NCBI GenBank assembly: GCA_965219385.1
Contig: CBDCNM010000002.1
Span: forward strand, 96,639-160,638
DNA: 64,000 nucleotides
Direction of reading: 5' to 3'
DNA from: Candidatus Latescibacterota bacterium
GTDB lineage: Bacteria; Latescibacterota; UBA2968; UBA8231
This document shows positions 51,434-64,000 of the stretch, one piece after another; positions within the stretch are counted from its first letter, which is position 1; each line of letters opens with the position of its first letter. A program made the translations under genes and the position numbers. The notes under the pieces were generated by a model. It searched no databases and was not told the DNA's origin. It saw nothing but the letters and a program-made list of their open reading frames with translations.

Positions 51434-51510
51434 GGGCGATTAGCTCAGTTGGTCAGAGCACCTGCCTTACAAGCAGGGGGTCGCTGGTTCGAGCCCGGCA
51501 TCGCCCACCA
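51434..51510 (+). tRNA. tRNA-Val (anticodon TAC)
   Basis: Acceptor stem GGGCGAT/ATCGCCC, anticodon arm CCTGC-CTTACAA-GCAGG, GTTCGA T-loop, encoded CCA. Confidence 0.97.
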
Positions 51511-51607: not shown

Positions 51608-54600
51608 TTGATGGGGACTGAAACCACCATCCGGGAAGGACAGGTCCTCACCGGCCCGCTGTTCAGCGAGCCGATGCTGGTGGAGACCGTCCGTTCAAAC
51701 GGGACCGACATCTGGGTCGCGGGCCTCGTCGGCCAGAAGTCTGAGCGGTTCCACCGGGTCACGCTCACCTCCGACGACATCTCGAACCTGGCCATCGCCG
51801 ACTCCGCTCTGTCCTACGACGGCGACGGGCGGCTTCTGCGCCTCGGCCTCCAGGCCTATTCACTGGGCATCGCCTACGAATTCGACCCCTATTTCGGGCT
51901 TTCCATCTCGCGCGTGGACCCGTTGCCGCACCAACTCGAAGCGGTCTACGATCATCTACTCAAGCTGCCCAGCGTGCGCTTCCTGCTCGCCGACGATGCG
52001 GGTGCGGGCAAGACCATCATGGCCGGCCTCCTGGTCCGCGAGCTCAAGCTTCGGGGCCTCGTCGAACGGGTTCTCGTCGTCTGTCCCGCCAACCTGACCT
52101 TCCAGTGGCAGCGCGAACTCAAGGAAAAGTTCGACGAGAAATTCCTCATTCTTAAGGGCGGCGACATCCGCGATCAATTCGGCGTCAACCAGTGGCTGGA
52201 GCAAAAGCAGATCATCACCTCGCTCGACCTGGCCAAGCGCACCGACATCCTGCCCGGACTGCGGCAGGTGCACTGGGATCTGGTGATCGTCGACGAGGCG
52301 CATCGCATGTCGGCCCGCGATGAGACCCATAAGAGCCAGCGCTACCGGCTGGGGGAGTTGCTGCGCGACAGCGCCGATCACGTACTTTTGTTGACTGCCA
52401 CGCCCCACAAGGGCGATCCGCAGAACTTCACCCTGTTCCTGCAGCTTCTCGACCGGGACGCCTACGCCGACGTGAGTTCGATCCGCGAGGCCATGGAGCG
52501 GAGGCGAGCGCCCTTCTACCTGCGGCGCACCAAGGAGGCGATGGTCTACTTCCCGGAGCGTCAGACGGACGGGACGTGGACCGCGAAGCCGGTTTTCACG
52601 AAACGTATCCCGCGCACCGCCGCCTTCGCCATTGAAGGCGCTGAATTCGAGCTCTATCAGAAGATCACCCGGTTCGTGAAACGGCAGAGCGCTCGCGCCG
52701 CGGCGCAGGGGGACGACCCGCAGGCTCGGGCGGTCGGCTTCCTGATGTCGTTGTACCAGCGGCGCCTCGCCTCCAGCACGCACGCTATGCGGCGATCGCT
52801 CGAGAACCGAACAAGGCGTCTGGAGGATGGTCTCAAGCGCGCCCAAGAACTGGTGCGGATGGCGCCGCCGGATCTTCCCGACTTAGAAGAGCTGGAGGAG
52901 TTCGAGGACGCCGAGCGCGAGCGCCTGGAGAGGATGCTGGAGGCGATCACGCTGGCCGGCAACGCCGAGCAGATACGTGAAGAGATCGCCGAACTCCTCG
53001 AGCTGGCCGAAGAGGCCAAGGCCGTCGAAGGCTCGGGCAACGAGGCCAAATTCGGACATCTTCGGGGGATCATGCAGGAGGAAGGGTTCTTCGACCGTCC
53101 CGACCAGCGACTGCTGCTCTTCACCGAGTTCAAGGACACCCTCGACTATCTGATGGAACAACTGAAAGCCTGGGGCTTCAGCGTCGGCTGCATCCACGGA
53201 GGCATGAAGTCCGGCTCGCGCGACGAACCGGGAAGCCGGCTCTACACCGAGCAGCAGTTCCGCGAAGGCGCCATCCAGATCCTGGTGGCCACCGAGGCGG
53301 CCGGCGAAGGCATCAACCTTCAGTGCTGCCACATCCTCTTCAACTACGACATCCCCTGGAATCCGAACCGGCTCGAACAGCGCATGGGCCGCATCCACCG
53401 CTACGGCCAGCGGCACGATTGCCTGATCTTCAACTTCGTGGCGACCAACACCATCGAGGGGCGGGTGCTCCAGCGCCTCTTGGACAAGCTCCAGGAGATC
53501 CGCGACGCCCTCGACGACGACGCGGTGTTCAACGTGGTGGGCGAGGTCTTGCCGTCCGCCCACGTGGAGCGCGTACTCCGAGACTACTACGCGGGGAAAT
53601 TGGGTGACTCTGATCTTGAAGAGCGGCTTTTGCAGGACGTGGATGAGGGGCACTTCCGGGCGATCTGCCAGACGGCGCTGGAAGGGTTGGCCGCCAAGAG
53701 GCTCAACCTCGACATGCTCATCGAGCGCCGGGCGAGGGCCCAGGAGCGGCGCGTCGTGCCCGAGACCATCGCGCGGTTCATCAAAGAGTGCGCCCAGGAT
53801 GCGGCCCTGGCCCTGAGGCCGGTGGGCCACTTGGCGCATACCTTCGAGCCGGGGCGGACTCCGTCCGGTTTGAAGAAGTACGAGCACAATCCAGACTGGA
53901 AACTCCCGGAGCTAGCGATTCGCTATCCGCGCCTGTCGATGGACCGCGACACGGCCGAGGAACACAACCTCGAATGGGTGACCCCCGGACATCCCCTGTT
54001 CGAGGCCCTGCGCCGTCATAGTCTAAATCTCGGCCAGGATGCCTTTGCCAAGGGGGCCTGTTTCCATTCACTGGCACACGCAGCACCGGCGCGCCTCGAC
54101 TTCTACCGGGCGCGGGTCGTGGATGGCCTCGGACAGGTCATCCACGAACGGCTGTTCACCGTGGAGCTCGCGAATGACGGCTCTCCCTGCCTCCGCGAAC
54201 CGGATGTCCTCGGCGATCTAAGCCCGGCCCACGCTTTGGGGGGTCTACCGCCCGTAGCCGCTCTCCCGGAGGCGACCGCCTGGCTCAACGAGCACGCGCT
54301 AATCCCGTTCAGCGACGAGGTCCGCACGGAGCGTCTGGCCGAGGTCGAGCGCATTGCCAGGCACGTCGAGCTGTCCTTGACCGAGGTTCTCCAGCGGATC
54401 GATGACGAGATCGGCCGTGCCGACGAAGAGGTGGATAACGACGTGACCGGCGCCGAAGGCCGCCTAGCGCAGGCCGAAACCCGTCATGCCGAGGTGCTGG
54501 CGCGGCGCAAGCGGCGGCATGAAGAGTTCGAGCGGCAGCGGGCGGTGACCCTGCAGGGAGTCGAGCGGCTCGCCAGCGTCCTGATCCTGCCCCATCCCGA

Positions 54601-55012
54601 ACGCGAGACCCTCGATGTCCGGCGCCTGCGTCCACATCCCGAAACCGAGATGACGGCGATGCGGGTGGTCATGGAGTACGAGACCGCGCAGGGCCGTCAG
54701 GTCGAAGATGTTCACGAGAAAAATCTTGGGTACGATATAACCAGCCTCGATCCAGCGTCCGGCGAGTTGCGTCTGATCGAGATAAAAGGTCTCGCCGCCG
54801 CCACCGGCAGCATCCTGCTGACGCCCAACGAGCGTCGCGTGGCCGAGGATCGCCGCGACTGCTACTGGCTCTACGTGGTGACCAACTGCGCCAGCGCCCC
54901 GGAGCTTCAGGATCCGATCAGAGACCCCGCCCGGTTCCCGTGGCACGAGGTCATCAAGGTCGCCCATTACTGGCTGGACGTGAACGCGATGACCAAGCCG
55001 ATGGAGGTGTGA
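51608..55012 (+). CDS. SNF2-family helicase with C-terminal DUF3883-like (PD-(D/E)xK) domain
   Basis: ADDAGAGKT, VDEAH, TATPH, AAGEGINLQ, QRMGRIHRYGQ; C-terminal GYDITS...IEIKG...LTPNE. Confidence 0.92.
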   Translation: MMGTETTIREGQVLTGPLFSEPMLVETVRSNGTDIWVAGLVGQKSERFHRVTLTSDDISNLAIADSALSYDGDGRLLRLGLQAYSLGIAYEFDPYFGLSISRVDPLPHQLEAVYDHLLKLPSVRFLLADDAGAGKTIMAGLLVRELKLRGLVERVLVVCPANLTFQWQRELKEKFDEKFLILKGGDIRDQFGVNQWLEQKQIITSLDLAKRTDILPGLRQVHWDLVIVDEAHRMSARDETHKSQRYRLGELLRDSADHVLLLTATPHKGDPQNFTLFLQLLDRDAYADVSSIREAMERRRAPFYLRRTKEAMVYFPERQTDGTWTAKPVFTKRIPRTAAFAIEGAEFELYQKITRFVKRQSARAAAQGDDPQARAVGFLMSLYQRRLASSTHAMRRSLENRTRRLEDGLKRAQELVRMAPPDLPDLEELEEFEDAERERLERMLEAITLAGNAEQIREEIAELLELAEEAKAVEGSGNEAKFGHLRGIMQEEGFFDRPDQRLLLFTEFKDTLDYLMEQLKAWGFSVGCIHGGMKSGSRDEPGSRLYTEQQFREGAIQILVATEAAGEGINLQCCHILFNYDIPWNPNRLEQRMGRIHRYGQRHDCLIFNFVATNTIEGRVLQRLLDKLQEIRDALDDDAVFNVVGEVLPSAHVERVLRDYYAGKLGDSDLEERLLQDVDEGHFRAICQTALEGLAAKRLNLDMLIERRARAQERRVVPETIARFIKECAQDAALALRPVGHLAHTFEPGRTPSGLKKYEHNPDWKLPELAIRYPRLSMDRDTAEEHNLEWVTPGHPLFEALRRHSLNLGQDAFAKGACFHSLAHAAPARLDFYRARVVDGLGQVIHERLFTVELANDGSPCLREPDVLGDLSPAHALGGLPPVAALPEATAWLNEHALIPFSDEVRTERLAEVERIARHVELSLTEVLQRIDDEIGRADEEVDNDVTGAEGRLAQAETRHAEVLARRKRRHEEFERQRAVTLQGVERLASVLILPHPERETLDVRRLRPHPETEMTAMRVVMEYETAQGRQVEDVHEKNLGYDITSLDPASGELRLIEIKGLAAATGSILLTPNERRVAEDRRDCYWLYVVTNCASAPELQDPIRDPARFPWHEVIKVAHYWLDVNAMTKPMEV

Positions 55013-55316: not shown

Positions 55317-55349
55317 TCAACACATGGACCGCATGATCGCTGGTCGCTT

Positions 55350-55556
55350 ATGAAAAAGCCGATGTTCAAAGCCGACGAGCCGGATGCTCAGTACCAAGCC
55401 ATCTTTGGCGATGTGTCCAGGATTATTGACGCCGCCAAGCGATCGGCCACCCGTTCGGCGAATACCGTTATGGCCGCCGCGTATTGGATGATCGAGCGTC
55501 GTATCGTTGAGTTTGAGCCGTCAGGAGAAAAAATTCTCCAAACAGCGGCTTGCTGA
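55350..55556 (+). pseudogene. DUF1016/YhcG N-terminal stub
   Basis: Similar to the start of 57304..57813 (YQAIFGDVSRIIDAA...AYWMIERRIVEFE); truncated. Confidence 0.7.
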
Positions 55557-55581
55557 CGCAAGAAAGAGAAAGGTGGAAACA

Positions 55582-55806
55582 ATGAACCATCCCAGAATTG
55601 CCGACCTGACCGTCGCGGAATTTAAGGAACTCCTTCGCGAGACAATCGCGCAATCGTTCGCCGACCTGCTCGGCGACCCCGATGAGGGCCTGGTACTGCG
55701 TGAGGACCTGGCCGAAGAGTTGCGGCGATCCCTTGCCGAGGTCGGCGCCGGCGGACAAACGTCGAGCCTGTCGGAGGTCGCAAGCAGACTCGAATCGACC
55801 AAATGA
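55582..55806 (+). CDS. Putative type II antitoxin
   Basis: 74 aa, IADLTVAEFKELL...GDPDEGLVLRE, ATGA-coupled to the RelE-like start. Confidence 0.7.
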   Translation: MNHPRIADLTVAEFKELLRETIAQSFADLLGDPDEGLVLREDLAEELRRSLAEVGAGGQTSSLSEVASRLESTK

Positions 55807-56333
55807 CCTATGACGTTGCACTGACTCCAACGGCCGAAGCCGACCTCCACCGCTTGGATTCGGCCGTTGCGCACCGTGTGATCGATAAAGTGCAGTGGCT
55901 GGCGGACAACATCGAGACGAGCCGGCTTGAGGCATTGACCGGCTCCTGGCCGGGTGTATTCAAGCTCAGGGTCGGGGACTATCCGGAGAGCGTTATTCGG
56001 GAAGTCGTCGGGAACGCACTCGTCCACCGAGACTACAGCATCGCGGGCGTGGACGTTACGTTGGCTATCTTCTCAAACCGCCTCGAAATTGTAAGTCCCG
56101 GGGATCTGTCCCACACACTGACGCCCGAGAAAATCGCCTCCGGCGCGCGCTACGCGCGAAACCAGACGCTGGTCAACGTGATGCGCGACTATGGGTACGT
56201 CGATCCTCGCGGCATGGGGATAAGGAAAAAGATCATTCCCGGAATGCGCGCCCACAACGGCACCGAGCCGGACCTGATCGAAGAAGAGCACCGCTTCACG
56301 GTTCGCCTGTGGAAGGAACCGAAGCCATCGTGA
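55803..56333 (+). pseudogene. Deletion fusion of a RelE-like toxin N-terminus to the C-terminus of an HATPase_c_4/RecG-C-like protein
   Basis: MTYDVALTPTAEADL...FKLRVGDY | PESVIREVVGNALVHRDY...RLEIVSPG...ARNQTL...GMGI. Confidence 0.72.
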
Positions 56334-56380
56334 TCCCCGGCGAATGCAAGCGTCTCACCCAAGTCGATTCGACACGGACT
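56330..56380 (+). pseudogene. DUF1156 methyltransferase start stub
   Basis: GTGATCCCCGGCGAATGCAAG...AAGTCGATTCGACACGG matches 60250-60345 with the part between two AAGTCGATT repeats deleted. Confidence 0.6.
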
Positions 56381-56397
56381 TCGCCTGATCGGGATGC

Positions 56398-56419
56398 TTG
56401 ACAGCATATTTTGCTGTCA
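56398..56419 (+). promoter_or_regulatory. vapBC promoter/operator
   Basis: TGACAGCA-N5-TGCTGTCA palindrome containing TTGACA. Confidence 0.65.
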
Positions 56420-56459
56420 TCAGGCTTTTTCGGTCACCCAAACCGATAAGGAGGCTGCG

Positions 56460-56717
56460 ATGAGTTCCACTGTCACTGTCCGCGATATTGACCCGGCGGA
56501 CAAAGCCTGGCTCAAACGAGAAGCGCGCCAAGTCGGCGTGTCAATGGAAGAGTTTATCCGCCGTCTGATCCGCGAGAAGCGCGCCAAGGCCGAGCACCGC
56601 GCAACGCCTTCCGAGGCTTTCAAGCGGTATTTTGGACCCGAACATGGGGTCGAGCTGCCGGAGTCTGGGCGCTATGCATACCGGAAGGTCGAGTTCGCTG
56701 GTGAGAGTGAGACGTGA
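56460..56717 (+). CDS. FitA/VapB-like RHH antitoxin
   Basis: TVTVRDIDPADKAWLKREARQVGVSMEE; RBS AAGGAGG; GTGA overlap with vapC. Confidence 0.8.
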   Translation: MSSTVTVRDIDPADKAWLKREARQVGVSMEEFIRRLIREKRAKAEHRATPSEAFKRYFGPEHGVELPESGRYAYRKVEFAGESET

Positions 56718-57166
56718 ACGCTCCTGTTGCTTGGCTCCTCGATGCGAATGTCATCTCGGAAATGATGCGCCCGCATCCAGAACCGCGTGTCGCTGCGTTT
56801 CTGGATAAGATCGCCGACCAAGGGATTGGTCTTGCATCCATTACTGTCTGGGAAATTCTCAACGGCATTGGCCTCCTTGATGCCGGACGGAGACGTGACG
56901 CCCTCGCCGAGCGGTTTCAGAACCTGCTCGACGACCTCTTTGAGGAGCGGATATTCGATTGGACCTTGGACGACGCTCGAGAGTGCGCCCGCATTATGGA
57001 AGCGAAGCAGCGTCGGGGCGAGGCGCTCGAAGACCACCTGCCGGACGCCTTTCTCGCGGCAACGGCGGCCCGACGCAGCCTCACCATCGTCACGCGAAAT
57101 GCAAGTGAGTTCCGCAATACCGGCGTTGAAGTCGTCAATCCTTGGGCTGTAGGAGAGAAGCCATGA
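56714..57166 (+). CDS. vapC: VapC/FitB PIN-domain toxin
   Basis: LLDANVISE, ITVWEI, DAFLAATA, VTRNASEF, VVNPW. Confidence 0.92.
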   Translation: MNAPVAWLLDANVISEMMRPHPEPRVAAFLDKIADQGIGLASITVWEILNGIGLLDAGRRRDALAERFQNLLDDLFEERIFDWTLDDARECARIMEAKQRRGEALEDHLPDAFLAATAARRSLTIVTRNASEFRNTGVEVVNPWAVGEKP

Positions 57167-57285
57167 ACAAGGGGATGCTTGACCAACAGATTCTAGACGA
57201 CATCATACGGCGCATTGTAGAGGTGGCTCAACCGGAGAAGATCATTCTCTTCGGGTCCGCCGCTCGCGGCGAGATGAACCGCTTA
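57163..57285 (+). pseudogene. Truncated MNT nucleotidyltransferase (copy of 60435..60761)
   Basis: Near-identical DNA to the 5' end of 60435 (LFGSAARGEMNR), then deleted and fused in frame to DUF1016. Confidence 0.78.
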
Positions 57286-57303
57286 CGGGGAGAAGAGCAG
57301 ATT

Positions 57304-57813
57304 ATGAAAAAGCCGATACTCACAGACGACAAGCTGGATGCTCAGTACCAAGTCATCTTTGGCGATGTGTCGAGGATTGTTGACGCCGCCAGGCAATCAG
57401 CTGCCCGGTCGGTGAATGCCGTTATGACCGCCGCGTATTGGCTGATCGGACGGCACATCGTGGAGTTTGAGCAGTCAGGCGAACAGCGAGCGGACTATGG
57501 AGAGGAGATTGTCGAACGGCTTGCCACTGATCTTTCCGCCCATTACGGCCGTGGATTCTCGATCCGCAATGTCTGGAACATGAAGGCGTTCTACCTCGCA
57601 TGGCCGATTCCGCAGACGGTGTCTGCAGAATCAGAATCCAGCGGAAATCTCCAGATAGTGTCTGGAGAATCTTCGCTAGCCAGCGTCGCCTCGCACTTTC
57701 CGCTTCCCTGGTCCGCCTATGTGCAGCTATTATCGGTTAAGAACGCGCATTCCCGTGAATCCTACGAAACCAAAGCGATTCACGGTGGTAACGACGACGA
57801 TGGTGGCGTTTGA
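57304..57813 (+). pseudogene. DUF1016/YhcG N-terminal domain, nuclease half missing
   Basis: AYWLIGRHIVEFEQSG..RADYG..YGRGFSIRN..LPWSAY; ends before the C-terminal domain. Confidence 0.78.
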
Positions 57814-57896
57814 CCAGAGGCGGATAATACGATACGTTGGGCAATGACAGAACGGATTCATGCAGCAACGCCCTGAATATTGAAAAGGATTTGAAA

Positions 57897-59279
57897 ATGG
57901 CAAAGAAGCAAACATCAGAAAATGATCCAAAAGAAGTTCAGAACGAAGGTATCACTGCGATTTCCGTACAGGGCTTTAAGTCACTTGCAAAAGAGAGTCG
58001 GATTGAAATTCGTCCACTAACGATCTTGGCAGGTGCGAATAGTTCTGGCAAATCGAGTATTATGCAGCCTCTGTTGCTGATGAAGCAGACTCTTGAAGCG
58101 AGTTATGACCCCGGACCACTTTTATTAGATGGCCCAAATGCTAAATTTACGTCCGCTAACCAATTCATTTCGCGTTTGCAGAAGGATTCTAAGCGACAGA
58201 CATTTAGAATCGAAATGGAGAATATAGAACCTGATTTAACGATTAAAAATGTATTTTCTATGGAAAAGAACCAAGCGATTGCAATCCAAGAGATGACGAT
58301 TAAAAAAGATGGGAACCACCTGCAATTGAAATCAAATCAAAGTTCCAGTTCTTTAAAGCGTACTGTCTCAGAATTTCTTTCTGACTCAGAATTTCTTTCT
58401 GAAAAAATAGGAGATTCTGAAGATTTGAAATTGGAGATCGTTAGAAATCGTTGTTTTCTCCATGTTGGCTATAAGTTCCTTGATAATAAAAGAGATTTTA
58501 AAAGAGATTTTTCCTCACCTCAATTCCATGCATCTATCATAACAAAAATATTTTCCGACCGCCTCAATAGAAGATTACGAGATGTGATTCATGTCCCTGG
58601 ATCACGCGGCAATCCCGAGCGAGTCTATTCTAGGACTGCCTCGGGGCCTGATTTCCCGGGCATATTTAACAATTATGTCGCCACTATCATTGCACAGTGG
58701 GAAAAAGAGAAAGATAGACGACTACATGATATAGAAACTATGCTTTTAGATCTTGGTCTAACCTGGAAAATTTCTGCAAAAGCGGTTGATGATACACAGA
58801 TTGAGTTACAGGTGGGACGCCTTTCACAACCAGAGCCGACAGAAGATCTTGTAAATATCGCTGATGTTGGCTTTGGCGTCTCGCAGGTGTTGCCCGTGCT
58901 TGTCGCGCTTTTGGTTGCTGAGGAAGCGCAACTCGTATATCTCGAACAACCGGAATTGCATTTGCATCCGCGAGCGCAGTATGAACTAGTGAAGATTTTA
59001 GTGGAGACGGCAAAACGCGGTGTGAAGTTGATCGTGGAGACACATAGTGCGCTGTTGTTACGCAGAGTACAGACATTGATGGCGGAGGGTAATCTCGCTC
59101 CTAATTTGGTGAAGCTACACTGGTTCTCGCGTAATTCCGAAGATGGAATGACTTCGATTCAGAGTGCTGATCTAGACGAAATTGGTGCTTTTGGGGATTG
59201 GCCGGAGGATTTTGGTGATGTCGAATTGATGGCTGAAAGTGCGTATCTCGATGCGGTGGAAGAGCGGAGTAAAAGATAA
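57897..59279 (+). CDS. ABC-type (AAA_15/AAA_21-like) ATPase with DUF3696-like C-terminus
   Basis: GANSSGKS, signature DVGFGVSQVLP, LEQPELHLHP, VETHS, WPEDF. Confidence 0.9.
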   Translation: MAKKQTSENDPKEVQNEGITAISVQGFKSLAKESRIEIRPLTILAGANSSGKSSIMQPLLLMKQTLEASYDPGPLLLDGPNAKFTSANQFISRLQKDSKRQTFRIEMENIEPDLTIKNVFSMEKNQAIAIQEMTIKKDGNHLQLKSNQSSSSLKRTVSEFLSDSEFLSEKIGDSEDLKLEIVRNRCFLHVGYKFLDNKRDFKRDFSSPQFHASIITKIFSDRLNRRLRDVIHVPGSRGNPERVYSRTASGPDFPGIFNNYVATIIAQWEKEKDRRLHDIETMLLDLGLTWKISAKAVDDTQIELQVGRLSQPEPTEDLVNIADVGFGVSQVLPVLVALLVAEEAQLVYLEQPELHLHPRAQYELVKILVETAKRGVKLIVETHSALLLRRVQTLMAEGNLAPNLVKLHWFSRNSEDGMTSIQSADLDEIGAFGDWPEDFGDVELMAESAYLDAVEERSKR

Positions 59280-59800
59280 TGGCAAAGAAGCCTCCTCGGC
59301 GATTGGTGATTGATGTCGATGTTGCACGTTCTGCCGGTGAATCGAAGCATCCGATTTCAAGTGCATGTCGGAGATTTCTAGAGACGATGTTGAGTGTTGG
59401 ACACCATGTTGTAATGACAGATGCGATAAAGGAAGAATGGAATTCCCATCAGTCTAGATACTTTCGTATATGGCTTAGGCAAATGTGGAGCCGTAAACAA
59501 GTTAATCGAGTCGAAGAGGAAAGCAATGATAATTTGCGAAAGAAAATTAATAAAGCTGTAACTCCAAAGCAGAAGATAGTTGTTGATAAGGATGTCCATC
59601 TTATTGAAGCAGCGATTGCGACGGATCGACTGGTCACTTCCCGAGATGAGACAGCACGAAGTGCATTTGGAGATGCGTCAGATGACGTAGGAGAATTGAG
59701 GCGAATTGTGTGGATAAATCCAACACAGAAATACGAAAAGCCCATTGAATGGCTACAGAAGGGCGCAAAGTTTGAAGCGCATCGTCAGCTAGGTGCCTGA
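59279..59800 (+). CDS. Hypothetical protein, PIN-like fold suspected
   Basis: TAATG-coupled to the ATPase. LVIDVDV...EEW...DVHLIEAA...VTSRD acidic pattern. Confidence 0.7.
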   Translation: MAKKPPRRLVIDVDVARSAGESKHPISSACRRFLETMLSVGHHVVMTDAIKEEWNSHQSRYFRIWLRQMWSRKQVNRVEEESNDNLRKKINKAVTPKQKIVVDKDVHLIEAAIATDRLVTSRDETARSAFGDASDDVGELRRIVWINPTQKYEKPIEWLQKGAKFEAHRQLGA

Positions 59801-59832
59801 TTCGATCATTGGTTTATAAGCGGATATTGTAA

Positions 59833-59935
59833 CTGACCTTACGCAGTAGCTCCCTATCTTGTGGTTTATCGAAGCCTGTTGACCCAAGATATTGGGGCGA
59901 AATTGAGGATTTTCTGGAAAACTGCGTAACGTCAG
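59833..59935. mobile_element. 103-bp MITE
   Basis: 15-bp IRs CTGACCTTACGCAGT / ACTGCGTAACGTCAG (1 mismatch), flanked by an ATTGTAA direct repeat (59826-59832, 59936-59942). Confidence 0.8.
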
Positions 59936-59955
59936 ATTGTAAGATGAAAAAATCA

Positions 59956-60190
59956 ATGAATCATCGTAGAATTACCGACCTGACCGTCGCAGAATCTAAG
60001 AAACTCTTTTGCGAGACAATCTCGCAACGTTCGCTGACTTGCTCGGCGACCCTGATGAAGGCTTGGTGCTGCGTGAGGACCTAGCCGAAGAGCTGCAGCG
60101 ATCCCTTGCCGAGATCGGCACGGGAGAACAAACGTTGAGCATGTTGGAGGTCGTGAGCAGGCTCAAGTTAAATAAATGACCTATGACGGT
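59956..60190 (+). pseudogene. Frameshifted second copy of the 55582 antitoxin plus RelE start stub
   Basis: DNA collinear with 55582-55816, including AAATGACCTATGACG. Confidence 0.8.
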
Positions 60191-60249
60191 TAGCTATGCG
60201 TGATTGGAATGAATATGAAATCATCCTCCGCATGGGCCGAGAAGTGCCT

Positions 60250-60438
60250 GTGATCCCCCGCGAATGCAAGCACCTCGTCGAAGTCGATTTTCCAATCGCC
60301 GAGGTTTCCTGGCACGCGGCACGGGAGAAGTCGATTCGGCACGGGCATCCGAATAGGCTGCTCCTGTGGTGGGCGCGGCAACCGTTGGCCTCGTCGCGGG
60401 CGGTGTTGCTGGCGTTGCTGCTAGGAGAGAAGCCATGA
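60250..60438 (+). pseudogene. DUF1156 adenine methyltransferase N-terminal stub
   Basis: IPRECKHLVEVDFPIAEVSWHAAREKSIRHGHPNRLLLWWARQPLASSRAVL. Confidence 0.8.
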
Positions 60439-60761
60439 AAAAGGGGATGCTTGACCAACAAACGTTGGACGACATCATACGGCGCATTGTAGAGGTGGCT
60501 CAACCGGAGAAGATCATCCTCTTCGGGTCCGCCGCCCGAGGCGACATGAATCGCCATAGCGACGTTGATCTGCTCATCATCAAGGAGGGCGCGGACGCGC
60601 TTGAACTCATGGGCGATATTTATATGAATCTCGATGGCGTCGGCGCAGCCGTCGATGTGGTTGTGGTGACGCCGGCGGATGTGGAGCGCTATAAGGACAG
60701 CCATGCGCTGGTCATCAAGCCCGCTCTGCGGGAGGGAACGGTGGTATATGAAGTCGCGTGA
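60435..60761 (+). CDS. Minimal nucleotidyltransferase (MNT antitoxin)
   Basis: ILFGSAARG...SDVDLL...VDVVV. Confidence 0.9.
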   Translation: MKKGMLDQQTLDDIIRRIVEVAQPEKIILFGSAARGDMNRHSDVDLLIIKEGADALELMGDIYMNLDGVGAAVDVVVVTPADVERYKDSHALVIKPALREGTVVYEVA

Positions 60762-61110: not shown

Positions 61111-62247
61111 ATGAATCACCTCGAAAGATATGATGTGTTGACGGCCTCCCCCTCTCCTGCGCCGTCGCATTGGTCTGCTTCCTACACTCATCGGGAGTGC
61201 TCGCTGCATCAACTATCGCCCTACATAGGAAAGCTAAAGAGCATCATTGCCAGAGATTTGATTTTGCAGTATAGCGAGCCGGGTCAGTTGGTAGCGGATA
61301 TGTTCTGTGGCAGCGGTACGGTGCCTCTGGAAGCAGCCCTCCTCAGGCGACGTGTATTTGCATCCGATACGAGCGTATATGCTATTACTTTGACCAAGGG
61401 AAAACTAAACGCACCCGAACGGATTGATGTCGCATTTGAAACTCTTGATAAGGTTCTAAACCACGTGGAATCATTGCCAACACCTGATCTTCGAGATATT
61501 CCACGATGGGTCCAGGCTTTCTTTCATCCTCGCACCCTGAAGGAGGCTCTGCGACTTACTCGATTCCTCAAACGCGAACGACGCTATTTTCTCTTGGGAT
61601 CAATGCTCGGCATTCTACACCACCAAAGACCTGGGTTTCTATCGTATCCCAGCAGCCATCTCGTGCCATACCTTCGATCAAACAAGTTTCCCAAATCTGC
61701 ATACCCAGAACTCTACGAATACCGTCCCGTTGAGCCACGCTTGAAAGCAAAAGTAGAACGCGCTCTGAAGCGCACACCAGAAGCCTCGTTATCCGCATTG
61801 GTTGATGGTGTTCGTCTATCTTCAGCGAAATCTATTAATCTTCCAGAGAGCATCGATTGCGTAATCACGAGTCCTCCTTACATGAATGCCCTAGACTACC
61901 GACGTGATAATCGTCTGCGGCTCTGGTTTCTTGGTGAATCATTTGGCGAGCGAGCAGACCGCACATTCACAACTCTTCCAGAATTTAGAAAATTGATGGA
62001 CGCGCTTGCGAGACAGTTAGATCAAAAAGTGCGTCGAGGTGGATATTGTATTTTTATGATCGGCGAGCAAATATTTCGAGGTAGTGATTACTTTCCATCA
62101 GAAGTGTTAGCGCAGAGCTTCTTAACGCATGCTTCGACATTTCGTCTTTACGACGTCATAACCGACATCATTCCCGATATTCGTCGCTCACGCAAACGTC
62201 TAGCAGGCGTAAAACGAGAGAATGTTCTCGTCTTCAGGAAAGACTAG
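61111..62247 (+). CDS. DNA amino-methyltransferase (N4-C/N6-A, motif I before motif IV)
   Basis: HQLSPYIGK, DMFCGSGT (SAM binding), ITSPPY (catalytic). Confidence 0.9.
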   Translation: MNHLERYDVLTASPSPAPSHWSASYTHRECSLHQLSPYIGKLKSIIARDLILQYSEPGQLVADMFCGSGTVPLEAALLRRRVFASDTSVYAITLTKGKLNAPERIDVAFETLDKVLNHVESLPTPDLRDIPRWVQAFFHPRTLKEALRLTRFLKRERRYFLLGSMLGILHHQRPGFLSYPSSHLVPYLRSNKFPKSAYPELYEYRPVEPRLKAKVERALKRTPEASLSALVDGVRLSSAKSINLPESIDCVITSPPYMNALDYRRDNRLRLWFLGESFGERADRTFTTLPEFRKLMDALARQLDQKVRRGGYCIFMIGEQIFRGSDYFPSEVLAQSFLTHASTFRLYDVITDIIPDIRRSRKRLAGVKRENVLVFRKD

Positions 62248-62249
62248 AT

Positions 62250-64000
62250 ATGCGCAAAAATCTCCCGCCTATTGATTTGTTTATCGGAGAGGAAATAGAT
62301 CAATTCCCGAACTATGTGATTGAAGAATATATAGATTCTGGAAATAACGGACACCTGTTTCGAGCCTTCAACCGATCGGCTGAAAACAATGTCGCATTTA
62401 AAATCGTTCCCGCCAAAAATCTTCCAGATGATGAAGGCGAACAACAAGTGTATCTCAATGAGGCAAAAAAGGCCAACCAGCTTGAGCACCCATCCGTGGT
62501 AAACTACATCGACGTTTTTCCTTACGATGAGCCTAAAAAAAAGATCAAATGTGTGGTTTTTGTATGTAACTATATCAAAGGACAAAATCTGAAGAATTAT
62601 ATGAAAAAGAAGGGGTCAGAAATCAATATCCCGTTCGTGGAAACATTTCTGCGAACGATGTTTGAACTACTATACGAATTAAAGGAACGCAAACTTCAGC
62701 ATGGCGATTTGCACGCTGGCAATGTACTCGTCGCAATTCCGGAATTTGATCCTTATGAACGACCGACCTTCCGAGTAACAGATTTTGGCGTTCGAGAATT
62801 GACCGGACAGATATCCCATGTGAGTGACTATCTGCACGTGGCGGACACACTTAGACAACTACTGGAAAAAATCGAGTATAGTAACTACGAGGGGAGAGAT
62901 CGTTACGCCTACGAAATTCTCAGGAGAGAGTTCCTGGGTCGTCACCTAATCGAGACTGATACCAGCGCAGATCCATTAGCCTCTAATCCCCGCGAGCTTC
63001 TGGCAAAGCTGGACTCTGTGGACGATCAGTATTTGGCGGCAAAAAAGAACTCTGTAACTACGCTAGTATCGCCATTCGATTACCCTAACTGCGAGCAAAT
63101 CGGGAACTCTCATCTATTGCTGAAGAGCCTCTACTCTGACCGTTTACTTGGACTGTCAGAAATCCAAAAACGGTCAAACTTGATACTGACCGGACCTCGA
63201 GGATGTGGGAAGACCACAGTCTTTCGTGCATTGAGCCTGGAATATCTGACTTCCACTGAGAATGATAATCCGAGCAATTTGACCTATATTGGTGTCTATT
63301 ATAGATGCGATGACCTGTACTTCGCTTTTCCAAGATACCAGACCCCTGATCGTAACGAGGCACTGGATGTTCCCATGCACTTCCTGACTGTCACGCTGAT
63401 AGCCATCGCGTTAGAGCAAATTGACACATGGGCAAAAAAGCATTTTCCAGATGAATTGGAGAAGAAAGAGGAGATCCTGGTTACCGAACTCTGGGAGCTA
63501 TTTGACTGGCAGCCTCCGGGAAATCCAACCTCTAGACAGTTGTCTACTCTGGTGAACAGGTTAAACAAGGAGAGGAAGCGTGCAGTCGACAAACAACGCT
63601 TCGTTCATGTACGGGAAGAACCTATCAAAGGCTATTTCGGCCCAGGGACGATGTTTGGAGCCTGCCGCCTTATCCGGAAGAGACTATCCTTTCTGCACGA
63701 GCGTCATTTTTATTTTTTTGTTGACGATTATTCACATCCAAAAATAACCAAAGACCTGCAAGCAAACCTTAACCGGTTGGTTATGCATCGTAATCCGGAC
63801 GTTTTCTTCAAGCTCTCGACGGAAAGCCCTGTTTCTTTTGCAAAAGAAGACGTAGACGGCAAGCAGTATGTCGAATCTCGTGAGTACGATCTTCTCAATC
63901 TCGGATTGAGATATATTTCAAGTGACCCTAAACAGACGCTGGATTTCTTAGAGGATTTATTCGCCCGCCGTTTCCAGGAAGTCGAGAATTATCCGGTTAA
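62250..64000 (+). CDS. Ser/Thr-type protein kinase fused to a P-loop (AAA+/STAND-like) ATPase; 3' end runs off the window
   Basis: Not in the ORF track. Translated by hand: IDSGNNGHLF, VAFK, NEA, HGDLHAGNVL, TDFG, then LTGPRGCGKTT (Walker A) and FYFFVDDYS (Walker B). The same frame is open at 64000. Confidence 0.88.
   Translation, partial: MRKNLPPIDLFIGEEIDQFPNYVIEEYIDSGNNGHLFRAFNRSAENNVAFKIVPAKNLPDDEGEQQVYLNEAKKANQLEHPSVVNYIDVFPYDEPKKKIKCVVFVCNYIKGQNLKNYMKKKGSEINIPFVETFLRTMFELLYELKERKLQHGDLHAGNVLVAIPEFDPYERPTFRVTDFGVRELTGQISHVSDYLHVADTLRQLLEKIEYSNYEGRDRYAYEILRREFLGRHLIETDTSADPLASNPRELLAKLDSVDDQYLAAKKNSVTTLVSPFDYPNCEQIGNSHLLLKSLYSDRLLGLSEIQKRSNLILTGPRGCGKTTVFRALSLEYLTSTENDNPSNLTYIGVYYRCDDLYFAFPRYQTPDRNEALDVPMHFLTVTLIAIALEQIDTWAKKHFPDELEKKEEILVTELWELFDWQPPGNPTSRQLSTLVNRLNKERKRAVDKQRFVHVREEPIKGYFGPGTMFGACRLIRKRLSFLHERHFYFFVDDYSHPKITKDLQANLNRLVMHRNPDVFFKLSTESPVSFAKEDVDGKQYVESREYDLLNLGLRYISSDPKQTLDFLEDLFARRFQEVENYPV

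Follow-up and report, generated by a model that had tools for sequence, protein, structure and literature searches.

Makarova et al. (2014) described a small protein family in which a zinc ribbon, a serine/threonine/tyrosine kinase, an AAA+ ATPase with an arginine in its P-loop, a CARF domain and a winged helix-turn-helix are fused (PMC4012209). A second group of relatives comprises cassettes in which an ATPase of the PF24389 family and a CARF6 protein accompany a linked methylase, optionally thyX, and a CE effector, that is, a nucleotide-degrading enzyme (PRTase-CE, PF24390, or HD-CE, PF24391). The CARF6 label is reportedly due to Makarova 2020, and the families PF24389-24391 to Nicastro 2023. 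Here we analyze a locus at the end of a 64,000-nucleotide (nt) stretch of a Candidatus Latescibacterota contig (G000:C2:96639-160638, hereafter the window), where a DNA methyltransferase (methylase), a kinase-ATPase fusion and a tandem CARF protein form a three-gene cassette.

The trio is a split variant of the fused kinase-AAA-CARF family. It shares with this family the kinase fused to an AAA+ ATPase with the P-loop arginine, as well as the CARF partner, but its tandem CARF protein is encoded by a separate gene, the zinc ribbon is lacking, and the methylase has no counterpart in the family's description as far as it is available (PMC4012209). With the CE-effector cassettes the trio has in common the PF24389 ATPase, CARF6, the linked methylase and the optional thyX, whereas it bears an ATPase-fused kinase instead of the nucleotide-degrading enzyme, and its methylase belongs to a distinct SPPY clade; the Pfam scan of the three genes gave no PRTase-CE or HD-CE match. 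We thus regard it as a split, methylase-linked, kinase-effector variant of a catalogued, apparently untested CARF6/ORC-CDC6 class. The original prediction, made from the letters of the window, had called the locus an undescribed system, which was too strong a word given that the fused kinase-AAA-CARF family and CARF6 models are already catalogued. A literature search found no paper on the cassette and no experimental test of it; Makarova 2020, Nicastro 2023 or their supplements may describe it in silico.

The genes of the cassette are as follows (window positions, continued past the window end as window-equivalent numbers):

61111-62247, + strand: methylase of the N6/N4 family, 378 amino acids (aa), an open reading frame (ORF) with FCGSG at residues 65-69 and SPPY at 254-257.

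62250 to window-equivalent 64733 (G000:C2:158888-161371), + strand: kinase-ATPase, 827 aa, starting with ATG, 583 codons of it inside the window.

Window-equivalent 64726-65826 (G000:C2:161364-162464), + strand: tandem CARF6 protein, 366 aa, its ATG overlapping the kinase-ATPase stop.

The genes are tightly packed. The kinase-ATPase ATG at 62250 lies 2 nt past the methylase stop, and its frame stays open to the window end and continues 733 nt beyond it; the gene was absent from the ORF track because the frame runs off the window. Its 583 codons within the window contain HGDLHAGN, DFG, GPRGCGKT and FFVDDY, so that the predicted arrangement of an SPPY methyltransferase 2 nt before a gene of at least 583 codons was confirmed together with its coordinates and all the listed motifs. 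The prediction of a two-gene locus was right in that both genes are real, but the downstream sequence reveals a third one, encoding a CARF protein as the likely sensor. The CARF gene overlaps the kinase-ATPase gene by 8 nt, and its stop overlaps the start codon of a DUF1156 methylase gene. The GC content of the three-gene cassette is 46% vs. 60% for the contig. The promoter scan stayed at chance level (7 matches vs. 6.5 in shuffled sequences).

The arrangement was compared with that of other loci (labelled L001, L100, etc.), namely the best 80 of 121 confirmed kinase-ATPase loci, which belong to archaea and to many phyla of bacteria. The loci are kin and include some duplicates, so that the following linkage counts are not independent. 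The methylase lies upstream in 71 of the 74 loci with room for it, the three without it (L036, L058, L074) having a partial kinase-ATPase only, and the CARF gene lies downstream in 75 of 76. The reverse test started from 524 metagenome methylase loci, of which the best 80 were kept; 68 of these had at least 600 nt downstream, and in 62 of the 68 the methylase is followed by the kinase-ATPase. Among the exceptions, L143 and L145 have the partner genes on the opposite strand, the methylase being convergent, L140 has a CARF remnant, the near-identical L112 and L115 have ParA and SIR2, and L120 has SIR2 upstream. The first start codon is found between -8 and +7 nt from the methylase stop in 56 of 72 cases. 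The methyltransferase linkage expected among the homologs is therefore conserved both ways, and a chance neighbourhood of the genes was rejected because the arrangement recurs in dozens of genomes.

When 345 flanking ORFs were clustered, no constant fourth gene emerged; restriction-modification (R-M) genes of types III and I, Hma genes and thyX recur as neighbours, and many copies of the cassette sit among housekeeping genes without an R-M neighbour. The cassette is mobile, as seen from its low GC content (below that of the flanks in 77 of 80 loci) and its patchy spread; within its own phylum, 5 of 168 genomes, from 4 families, have the methylase. At L100 and L179 the same methylase is followed by fused kinase-ATPase-CARF-CARF proteins of about 1220 aa, and likewise at L180, where the kinase start is split off, which indicates that the fused and the split form belong to a single system. 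Eight loci come from viral contigs: one with the full trio, one with the methylase and kinase-ATPase, three with ParA and SIR2, two with DUF262 and a protein with a weak HEPN match, and one that is itself a weak match, as judged by scanning one locus per partner type and assigning the rest from near-identical starts.

The central protein combines a kinase domain at residues ~20-260 (Pfam Pkinase, E 1e-14) with an AAA+ ATPase of the ORC-CDC6-like family (PF24389, E 2.6e-56), and it matches the PADLOC model CARF6--CARF_STK_AAA (PDLC01925, E 3.6e-22). In 66 near-full-length homologs the catalytic residues of the kinase are kept, K51 and E71 in 65 and H151, D153, H155, N158, D178 and F179 in all 66. 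The spacing between DFG and the invariant D193 is just 11-13 residues in 66/66, with no APE motif, and because of this short spacing the usual activation segment is missing; the earlier description of a kinase without an evident APE motif was thus correct. On the ATPase side, the P-loop GxRGCGK, including the arginine R317, and the DDY motif are present in all 66 homologs, leaving Walker A and Walker B intact, and a C-terminal basic patch (R750, R755, R761, R765, R766) is kept in 60-65 of them. The structure model of the 827-aa protein (pLDDT, a predicted local distance difference test score, 82) matches Hanks-type kinases such as PknB and PpkA (Z 18.4, root-mean-square deviation, rmsd, 2.8 over 220 aligned residues); the fold-search lists were filled by kinases, so these matches speak for the kinase part. 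Searches of solved-structure sequences with the ATPase and the CARF protein gave nothing useful beyond P-loop matches.

The fusion family is large: of 8000 candidates scored, 697 matched, and both the kinase and PF24389 are present in 117 of the 120 listed. Of 99 complete trios, 7 have a broken kinase-ATPase frame and one a broken methylase frame; toxicity, the length of the gene or assembly error could be the cause. Split or interrupted kinase-ATPase genes were seen at L005, L011, L012, L026, L071, L090 and L117, as well as at L181.

The third protein had no Pfam match but matched the PADLOC model CARF6--CARF_CARF_CARF (PDLC01917, E 3.8e-16). Its structure model (pLDDT 93) found as its best structural match 6SCE, which we take to be Can1 (Z 15.0, rmsd 4.7, 242 residues), followed by Card1, Can2 and Csa3, so the fold is that of oligonucleotide-binding CARF proteins according to the structural search. 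In Foldseek the top places went to tandem Rossmann proteins that are unrelated, at low TM-scores, CARF proteins coming at ranks 26-38; this ambiguity was resolved because the wide structural search put CARF proteins on top. As modelled, the protein consists of two CARF lobes without an effector domain, and the two halves show no pairwise sequence similarity. No signal synthase was found among the 174 neighbour proteins scanned (73 + 101). Elsewhere the host genome has two Cas10-Cmr2 palm matches, whose frames measure 490 and 537 aa, as well as a single SMODS match (G000:C2:2619302, 1549748, 3324988).

The methylase matches N6_N4_Mtase (PF01555, E 1e-9), and the closest solved structure is a DNA cytosine-N4 methyltransferase (8S9M, E 1.7e-6). 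Its motifs run in the order FxGxG, insert, SPPY, known as the alpha arrangement, and N4-cytosine enzymes typically have SPPY. The protein is therefore likely an N4-cytosine DNA methylase, both the base and the substrate being predicted from its sequence. The insert and the SPPY region are conserved across 70 aligned homologs, the insert being near-invariant from bacteria to archaea, and both are retained in all 18 methylases of a further alignment that included the viral-contig copies. Identities to the window copies range from 38 to 75% for the methylase and from 26 to 72% and 23 to 68% for its two partners, so that by alignment the methylase, with its would-be specificity insert, is conserved at depth as much as or more than the partners. 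The annotated phage collection contained no match to it. At L009, an apparent "methylase fusion" of 1366 aa was dismissed, being an in-frame extension that runs antisense to a DUF499-like gene. The complex prediction for the ATPase region and the methylase returned a score of 0.00, which is no answer and was not counted either way.

A PF24389 search of the same phylum gave matches in 17 of 168 genomes, and 14 PF24389 regions were examined, the window locus, three previously covered regions and another at the edge of a contig being set aside. In five of them a C5 DNA methylase stands with HD-CE, the ATPase and CARF6, once together with Vsr; in three an N6/N4 methylase stands with PRTase-CE, the ATPase and CARF6, and in one more PRTase-CE, the ATPase and CARF6 are joined by another methyltransferase. 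In two regions TIR is fused to the ATPase and accompanied by CARF6 and an N6/N4 methylase, and one region has a TIR-ATPase with no partner seen. Altogether a methyltransferase is present in 11 of the 14. The survey shows the kinase in an effector slot whose occupant can be swapped, and true DNA methylases in the methylase slot; the trio is thus the kinase version of a modular cassette made of a DNA methylase, an effector, an ORC-CDC6-like ATPase and CARF6. The view of the kinase as an effector, put forward in the original prediction, is upheld by its retained catalytic residues and by its sharing this slot with PRTase-CE, HD-CE and TIR.

Several of the surveyed regions have features of their own. 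The genome under study carries a second cassette, L183 (G000:C2:3666000-3680000, the genes at about 3671000-3675900, minus strand), consisting of a C5 methylase, HD-CE, an ORC-CDC6-like ATPase and CARF6. The two TIR-ATPase cassettes with CARF6 and an N6/N4 methylase (L192, L196) sit just 3' of an HsdS-like gene. At L193 and L194 the Druantia protein DruA (DUF4338) precedes the kinase-ATPase and CARF6 in the methylase position, where it may serve as a DNA-modifying input; the CARF at L193 and L195 was assigned by our own profile only.

The same methylase clade also precedes modules of other kinds. At L112, L115, L173-L175 (6920-9979) and L182 it stands before ParA and SIR2, in operons found on prophage-like viral contigs, on metagenome contigs and in a Salmonella record (the latter by annotation). 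The ParA of this operon matched no named PADLOC system, and the DNA of the operon had no match in the E. coli genomes searched. ParA-sirtuin pairs have been described, and no word beginning with "methyl" occurs in the main text of that description (10.64898/2026.10.19.760177). On the viral contigs L171 and L176 (6938-9831) the methylase precedes a DUF262 (GmrSD_N) protein and a protein with a weak RiboL-PSP-HEPN match. Such a pairing of one methylase clade with different modules would be natural if the sensors differed but responded to a single chemical product.

Another recurrent neighbour is thymidylate synthase. The gene thyX adjoins the cassette on the same strand at eight loci, with 2-nt gaps at L048 and L051 and a stop-start overlap at L065; at L119 thyA is adjacent and convergent, and at L014 thyX lies 1 kb off. 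Adjacent thyX or thyA was counted at 9 of 194 flanks vs. ~0.1 expected from the genome-wide density, with the reservation that kin are not independent and that the baseline may be higher in mobile DNA. In 7 of 7 genomes checked, the search covering 50 of 78 handles, the thyX near the cassette is a spare copy. ThyX is also present in three sister cassettes, in each case in addition to a chromosomal thyA (3 of 3 genomes), and in a separate search a Bradyrhizobium plasmid was found to bear the trio, its kinase and ATPase being split, with thyX behind it. A quick methylase tree, with the incomplete L065 left out, had 83 rows; the eight thyX-labelled ones need eight changes on it (shuffled mean 7.8), and the thyX proteins of the cassettes fall into groups just 21-40% alike, thus indicating that thyX was gained repeatedly. 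As the link is seen with more than one effector type, it concerns the core of methylase and sensor. A spare copy of thymidylate synthase is a clue that connects the system with pyrimidine pools.

Individual loci have further neighbours of this kind. The cassette-adjacent thyX at L082:11944-14112 contains an intein, and an operon of a dCTP deaminase-like gene, an unknown gene and thyX lies near the cassette at L087:4729-6777. A thymidylate kinase is a neighbour at L100:5197-5919, a dCMP-deaminase-family protein at L146:210-1775, an S-adenosylhomocysteine (SAH) hydrolase at L091:377-1966 and an S-adenosylmethionine (SAM) synthetase at L069:11680-12879.

Other defence systems share parts of this composition. 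BREX-2/Pgl (PglX, PglW, BrxC/BrxD) and MADS (mad2, mad6) likewise combine a methylase, a Ser/Thr kinase and an ORC/Cdc6-clade ATPase, but this assignment was rejected, as PglZ, BrxC, BrxHI and other MADS genes are missing from the trio, and PglZ, BrxC, PglX, PglW or the mad1-8 set do not occur as constant neighbours. The MADS/BREX scans gave generic kinase-domain matches only (NCBIfam MAD6, 31 bits vs. a cut-off of 460). The STAND domain of PglW is described as inactive (PMC12839542), in contrast to the intact Walker A and B of the trio ATPase. The resemblance to Stk2 and PD-T4-6 lies in a eukaryote-like kinase as the likely abortive-infection effector; both are single-gene systems, and similarity to PD-T4-6 is confined to the kinase domain (best E 1.7e-16, residues 17-185). 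A type II R-M system was rejected, since there is no constantly linked endonuclease among the 345 flanking ORFs and no nuclease domain in the trio. The statement that no restriction endonuclease is visible in the window accordingly stands for the trio, as scanned with Pfam, and needs a qualification for the whole window, where HmaA has a C-terminal NOV_C domain. An Avs/NLR-like STAND protein was rejected as well, the ATPase having no C-terminal TPR/LRR/WD repeats: the Pfam scan of the 827-aa protein gave no match to such repeats, and the kinase and PF24389 account for the protein. The comparison of the ATPase with STAND infection sensors is thus not supported, for it is ORC-CDC6-like (PF24389) and not an NLR/Avs of the TPR/LRR type.

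The cassette is real, conserved and probably defensive, and its genomic context and the effector swaps make a role in anti-phage defence very likely. For the way it may work, a precedent is provided by Metis (10.1101/2025.11.05.686725) and PUA-Cal-HAD (10.64898/2026.01.15.699771), which sense N6-methyl-dAMP (m6dAMP) arising from phage-driven genome degradation. The Metis paper also predicts "type III" systems with a methylase of their own and sensing of methylated cytosine, assigned to MisA homologs and not to CARF proteins; the words "CARF" and "kinase" are absent from its main text (10.1101/2025.11.05.686725). The likeness to the trio lies in the proposed working only, i.e., a methylation mark freed by genome degradation triggers a toxic effector. 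In composition the trio differs, lacking the PUA-like sensor, the calcineurin effector and the MisB-type partner, as far as Metis is described, and having CARF, ATPase and kinase instead; the Pfam scan of its genes gave no PUA, calcineurin or HAD match.

By analogy, the cassette could be an abortive-infection alarm that is set off by methylated DNA breakdown products through CARF, ATPase and kinase, a scheme we rank first and put forward tentatively as having a reasonable, though less than even, chance. The methylase would mark the host DNA, presumably at N4 of cytosine, and phage nucleases would free methylated nucleotides or short fragments from the marked DNA, as with m6dAMP in Metis and PUA-Cal-HAD. 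These products would be the ligand of the CARF protein, a role suggested by its fold and by the lack of a linked synthase among the 174 neighbour proteins. The CARF protein might then switch on the ATPase, which would assemble or oligomerize and thereby activate the fused kinase that has no activation loop. The kinase, toxic if this is correct, would phosphorylate host proteins and stall the cell, as suggested by kinase defences such as Stk2 and by the alternative effectors. In a more specific and somewhat more doubtful form, the mark is self-written N4-methylcytosine, the tandem CARF reads freed methylated cytosine, the ORC/Cdc6-type ATPase relays the signal to the kinase, and thymidylate synthase buffers the pyrimidine pool; the cassette would then be the cytosine counterpart of Metis.

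Several observations count against such an alarm. To our knowledge, CARF domains bind cyclic oligoadenylates and not methylated mononucleotides. No signal-clearing enzyme is a constant part of the cassette, whereas in Metis the effector comes with MisB, which has the clearing role there. Two of the 14 surveyed regions contain DruA, the kinase-ATPase and CARF6 with no methylase, and thyX was not found in the window's genome and is also lacking from most copies of the cassette. The basic patch of the ATPase suits direct DNA binding and so favours recognition of non-self DNA, and the Cas10-palm and SMODS matches in the host make a signal in trans possible.

These points lead to the competing explanations. 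A nuclease-free discrimination of self from non-self, similar to BREX or MADS, would have the methylase protect sites of the host while the ATPase binds unmethylated sites of incoming DNA, assembles there with CARF and fires the kinase. ORC/Cdc6-clade ATPases are described as binding DNA (10.64898/2026.10.19.760177), which fits the conserved basic C-terminal patch; R-M and Hma genes are frequent neighbours, and PD-lambda-5 is described as a compact system combining R-M and abortive infection. Nevertheless, we consider this explanation unlikely, though a serious competitor, as the putative target-recognition insert is near-invariant even across cassettes with unrelated partner modules, and the obligatory nucleotide-type sensor and the thyX link are left unexplained. 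The methylases of R-M systems are expected to show diversifying specificity. The methylation-based self marking of the original prediction survives as one of several readings, its restriction-sense version not being ranked first. In a guard model, the methylase, the SAM supply or the Hma/R-M machine would serve as bait, and a phage anti-restriction or SAM-destroying protein would release the kinase, as in PrrC and PARIS, whose guarding is discussed by Payne et al. (10.1101/2024.01.29.577857). The embedding of the cassette in Hma and R-M operons, the tight translational coupling of methylase and kinase-ATPase, and three loci adjoining SAM synthetase (L069 and its relative L070) or SAH hydrolase (L091) agree with this model, and yet three unrelated modules would have to guard one methylase clade, many copies lie amid housekeeping genes without an R-M neighbour, and the methylase of L143/L145 runs convergently towards its two partner genes, all of which makes it improbable.

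Selfish addiction, with the methylase as an antidote whose loss of methylation lets the kinase-ATPase kill and with phage defence as a secondary effect, seems more improbable still. It would suit a mobile, patchily spread, low-GC element found on a viral contig and a plasmid, and also the kinase-ATPase being broken in 7 of 99 trios as against one methylase, as for a toxic gene (which is also the longest one, with assembly errors possible); however, such a module does not need a dedicated CARF sensor, and the sister effectors TIR, HD-CE, PRTase-CE, SIR2 and HEPN are typical immune effectors. Least probable, with only a slight chance, is an ancillary effector that responds to cyclic oligonucleotides which type III CRISPR or CBASS would make in trans, with a separate job for the methylase. 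The best CARF fold matches do bind cyclic oligoadenylates and the host has the Cas10-palm and SMODS matches, but these lie more than 1 Mb away, no synthase occurs among the 174 neighbour proteins, and the obligatory methylase remains unexplained.

If the alarm triggered by methylated breakdown products is the correct explanation, methylated-nucleotide danger sensing would extend from adenine to cytosine and CARF domains would gain a new ligand class, sensing a DNA breakdown product rather than a synthesized cyclic messenger. It would also account for a widespread nuclease-free methylase cassette of bacteria and archaea and provide a key to a large family in which methylases and effectors can be swapped (kinase, TIR, PRTase and HD, with ParA-SIR2 and DUF262-HEPN for the same methylase). 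Both CARF6 proteins and ORC-CDC6-like ATPases have been catalogued and occur without CRISPR-type cyclases, a ligand or tested function being absent from the literature read; the near-obligatory methylase, with its varying chemistry among sister cassettes, offers a direct hypothesis for the CARF6 ligand. Should the self/non-self explanation hold instead, the cassette would represent restriction logic without a nuclease.

The cassette lies within an Hma defence island, between hmaA upstream and hmaB and hmaC downstream. This embedding and the R-M neighbours corroborate the predicted defence setting. The features of the island are as follows:

51434-51510, + strand: tRNA-Val (ARAGORN), at the left edge of the island.

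51608-55012, + strand: HmaA, first gene of the Hma system, an SNF2 helicase with C-terminal NOV_C (PADLOC HmaA, E 8.5e-171; PF13020, E 6e-22).

57837-59800 of the window, L001:9235-11160 and L001:11277-13027: embedded ABC-ATPase/PIN-like and HEC-01 pairs (Pfam, PADLOC).

60251-60422, + strand: partial copy of hmaB, a remnant of its 5' end with 85% identity to the start of the intact gene (self-blastn of the island).

G000:C2:162461-165445, directly after the CARF gene: hmaB (PADLOC HmaB, E 3.5e-112).

G000:C2:170064-172835, further downstream: hmaC (PADLOC HmaC, E 1.8e-94).

The NOV_C domain of HmaA, which we take to be a nuclease fold, belongs to the surrounding Hma system and not to the trio. 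The tRNA-Val is likely the integration site of the island, and the hmaB remnant upstream of the cassette is likely an insertion or recombination scar. Other Hma-embedded copies of the cassette were found at L003, L010 and L015, and type I/III R-M genes are neighbours at further loci. Payne et al. report defence for 7 of 9 Hma-embedded candidates tested (10.1101/2024.01.29.577857). The cassette resembles these embedded defences in its place inside the hma genes, whereas its content is unlike HEC-01 to HEC-09 as they are described there; the PADLOC matches shown for the three genes include no HEC or PDC model. The same Hma system holds two pairs of an ABC-ATPase and a weak PIN-like protein (NsnB/HEC-03-like) and a HEC-01A/B pair. 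Direct repeats of 137-239 nt, 84-93% identical, occur at window positions 55348-60554 and at G000:C2:165307-166235, where they separate small toxin-antitoxin-like and nucleotidyltransferase fragments of the island; this suggests the repeated capture of cassettes by recombination.

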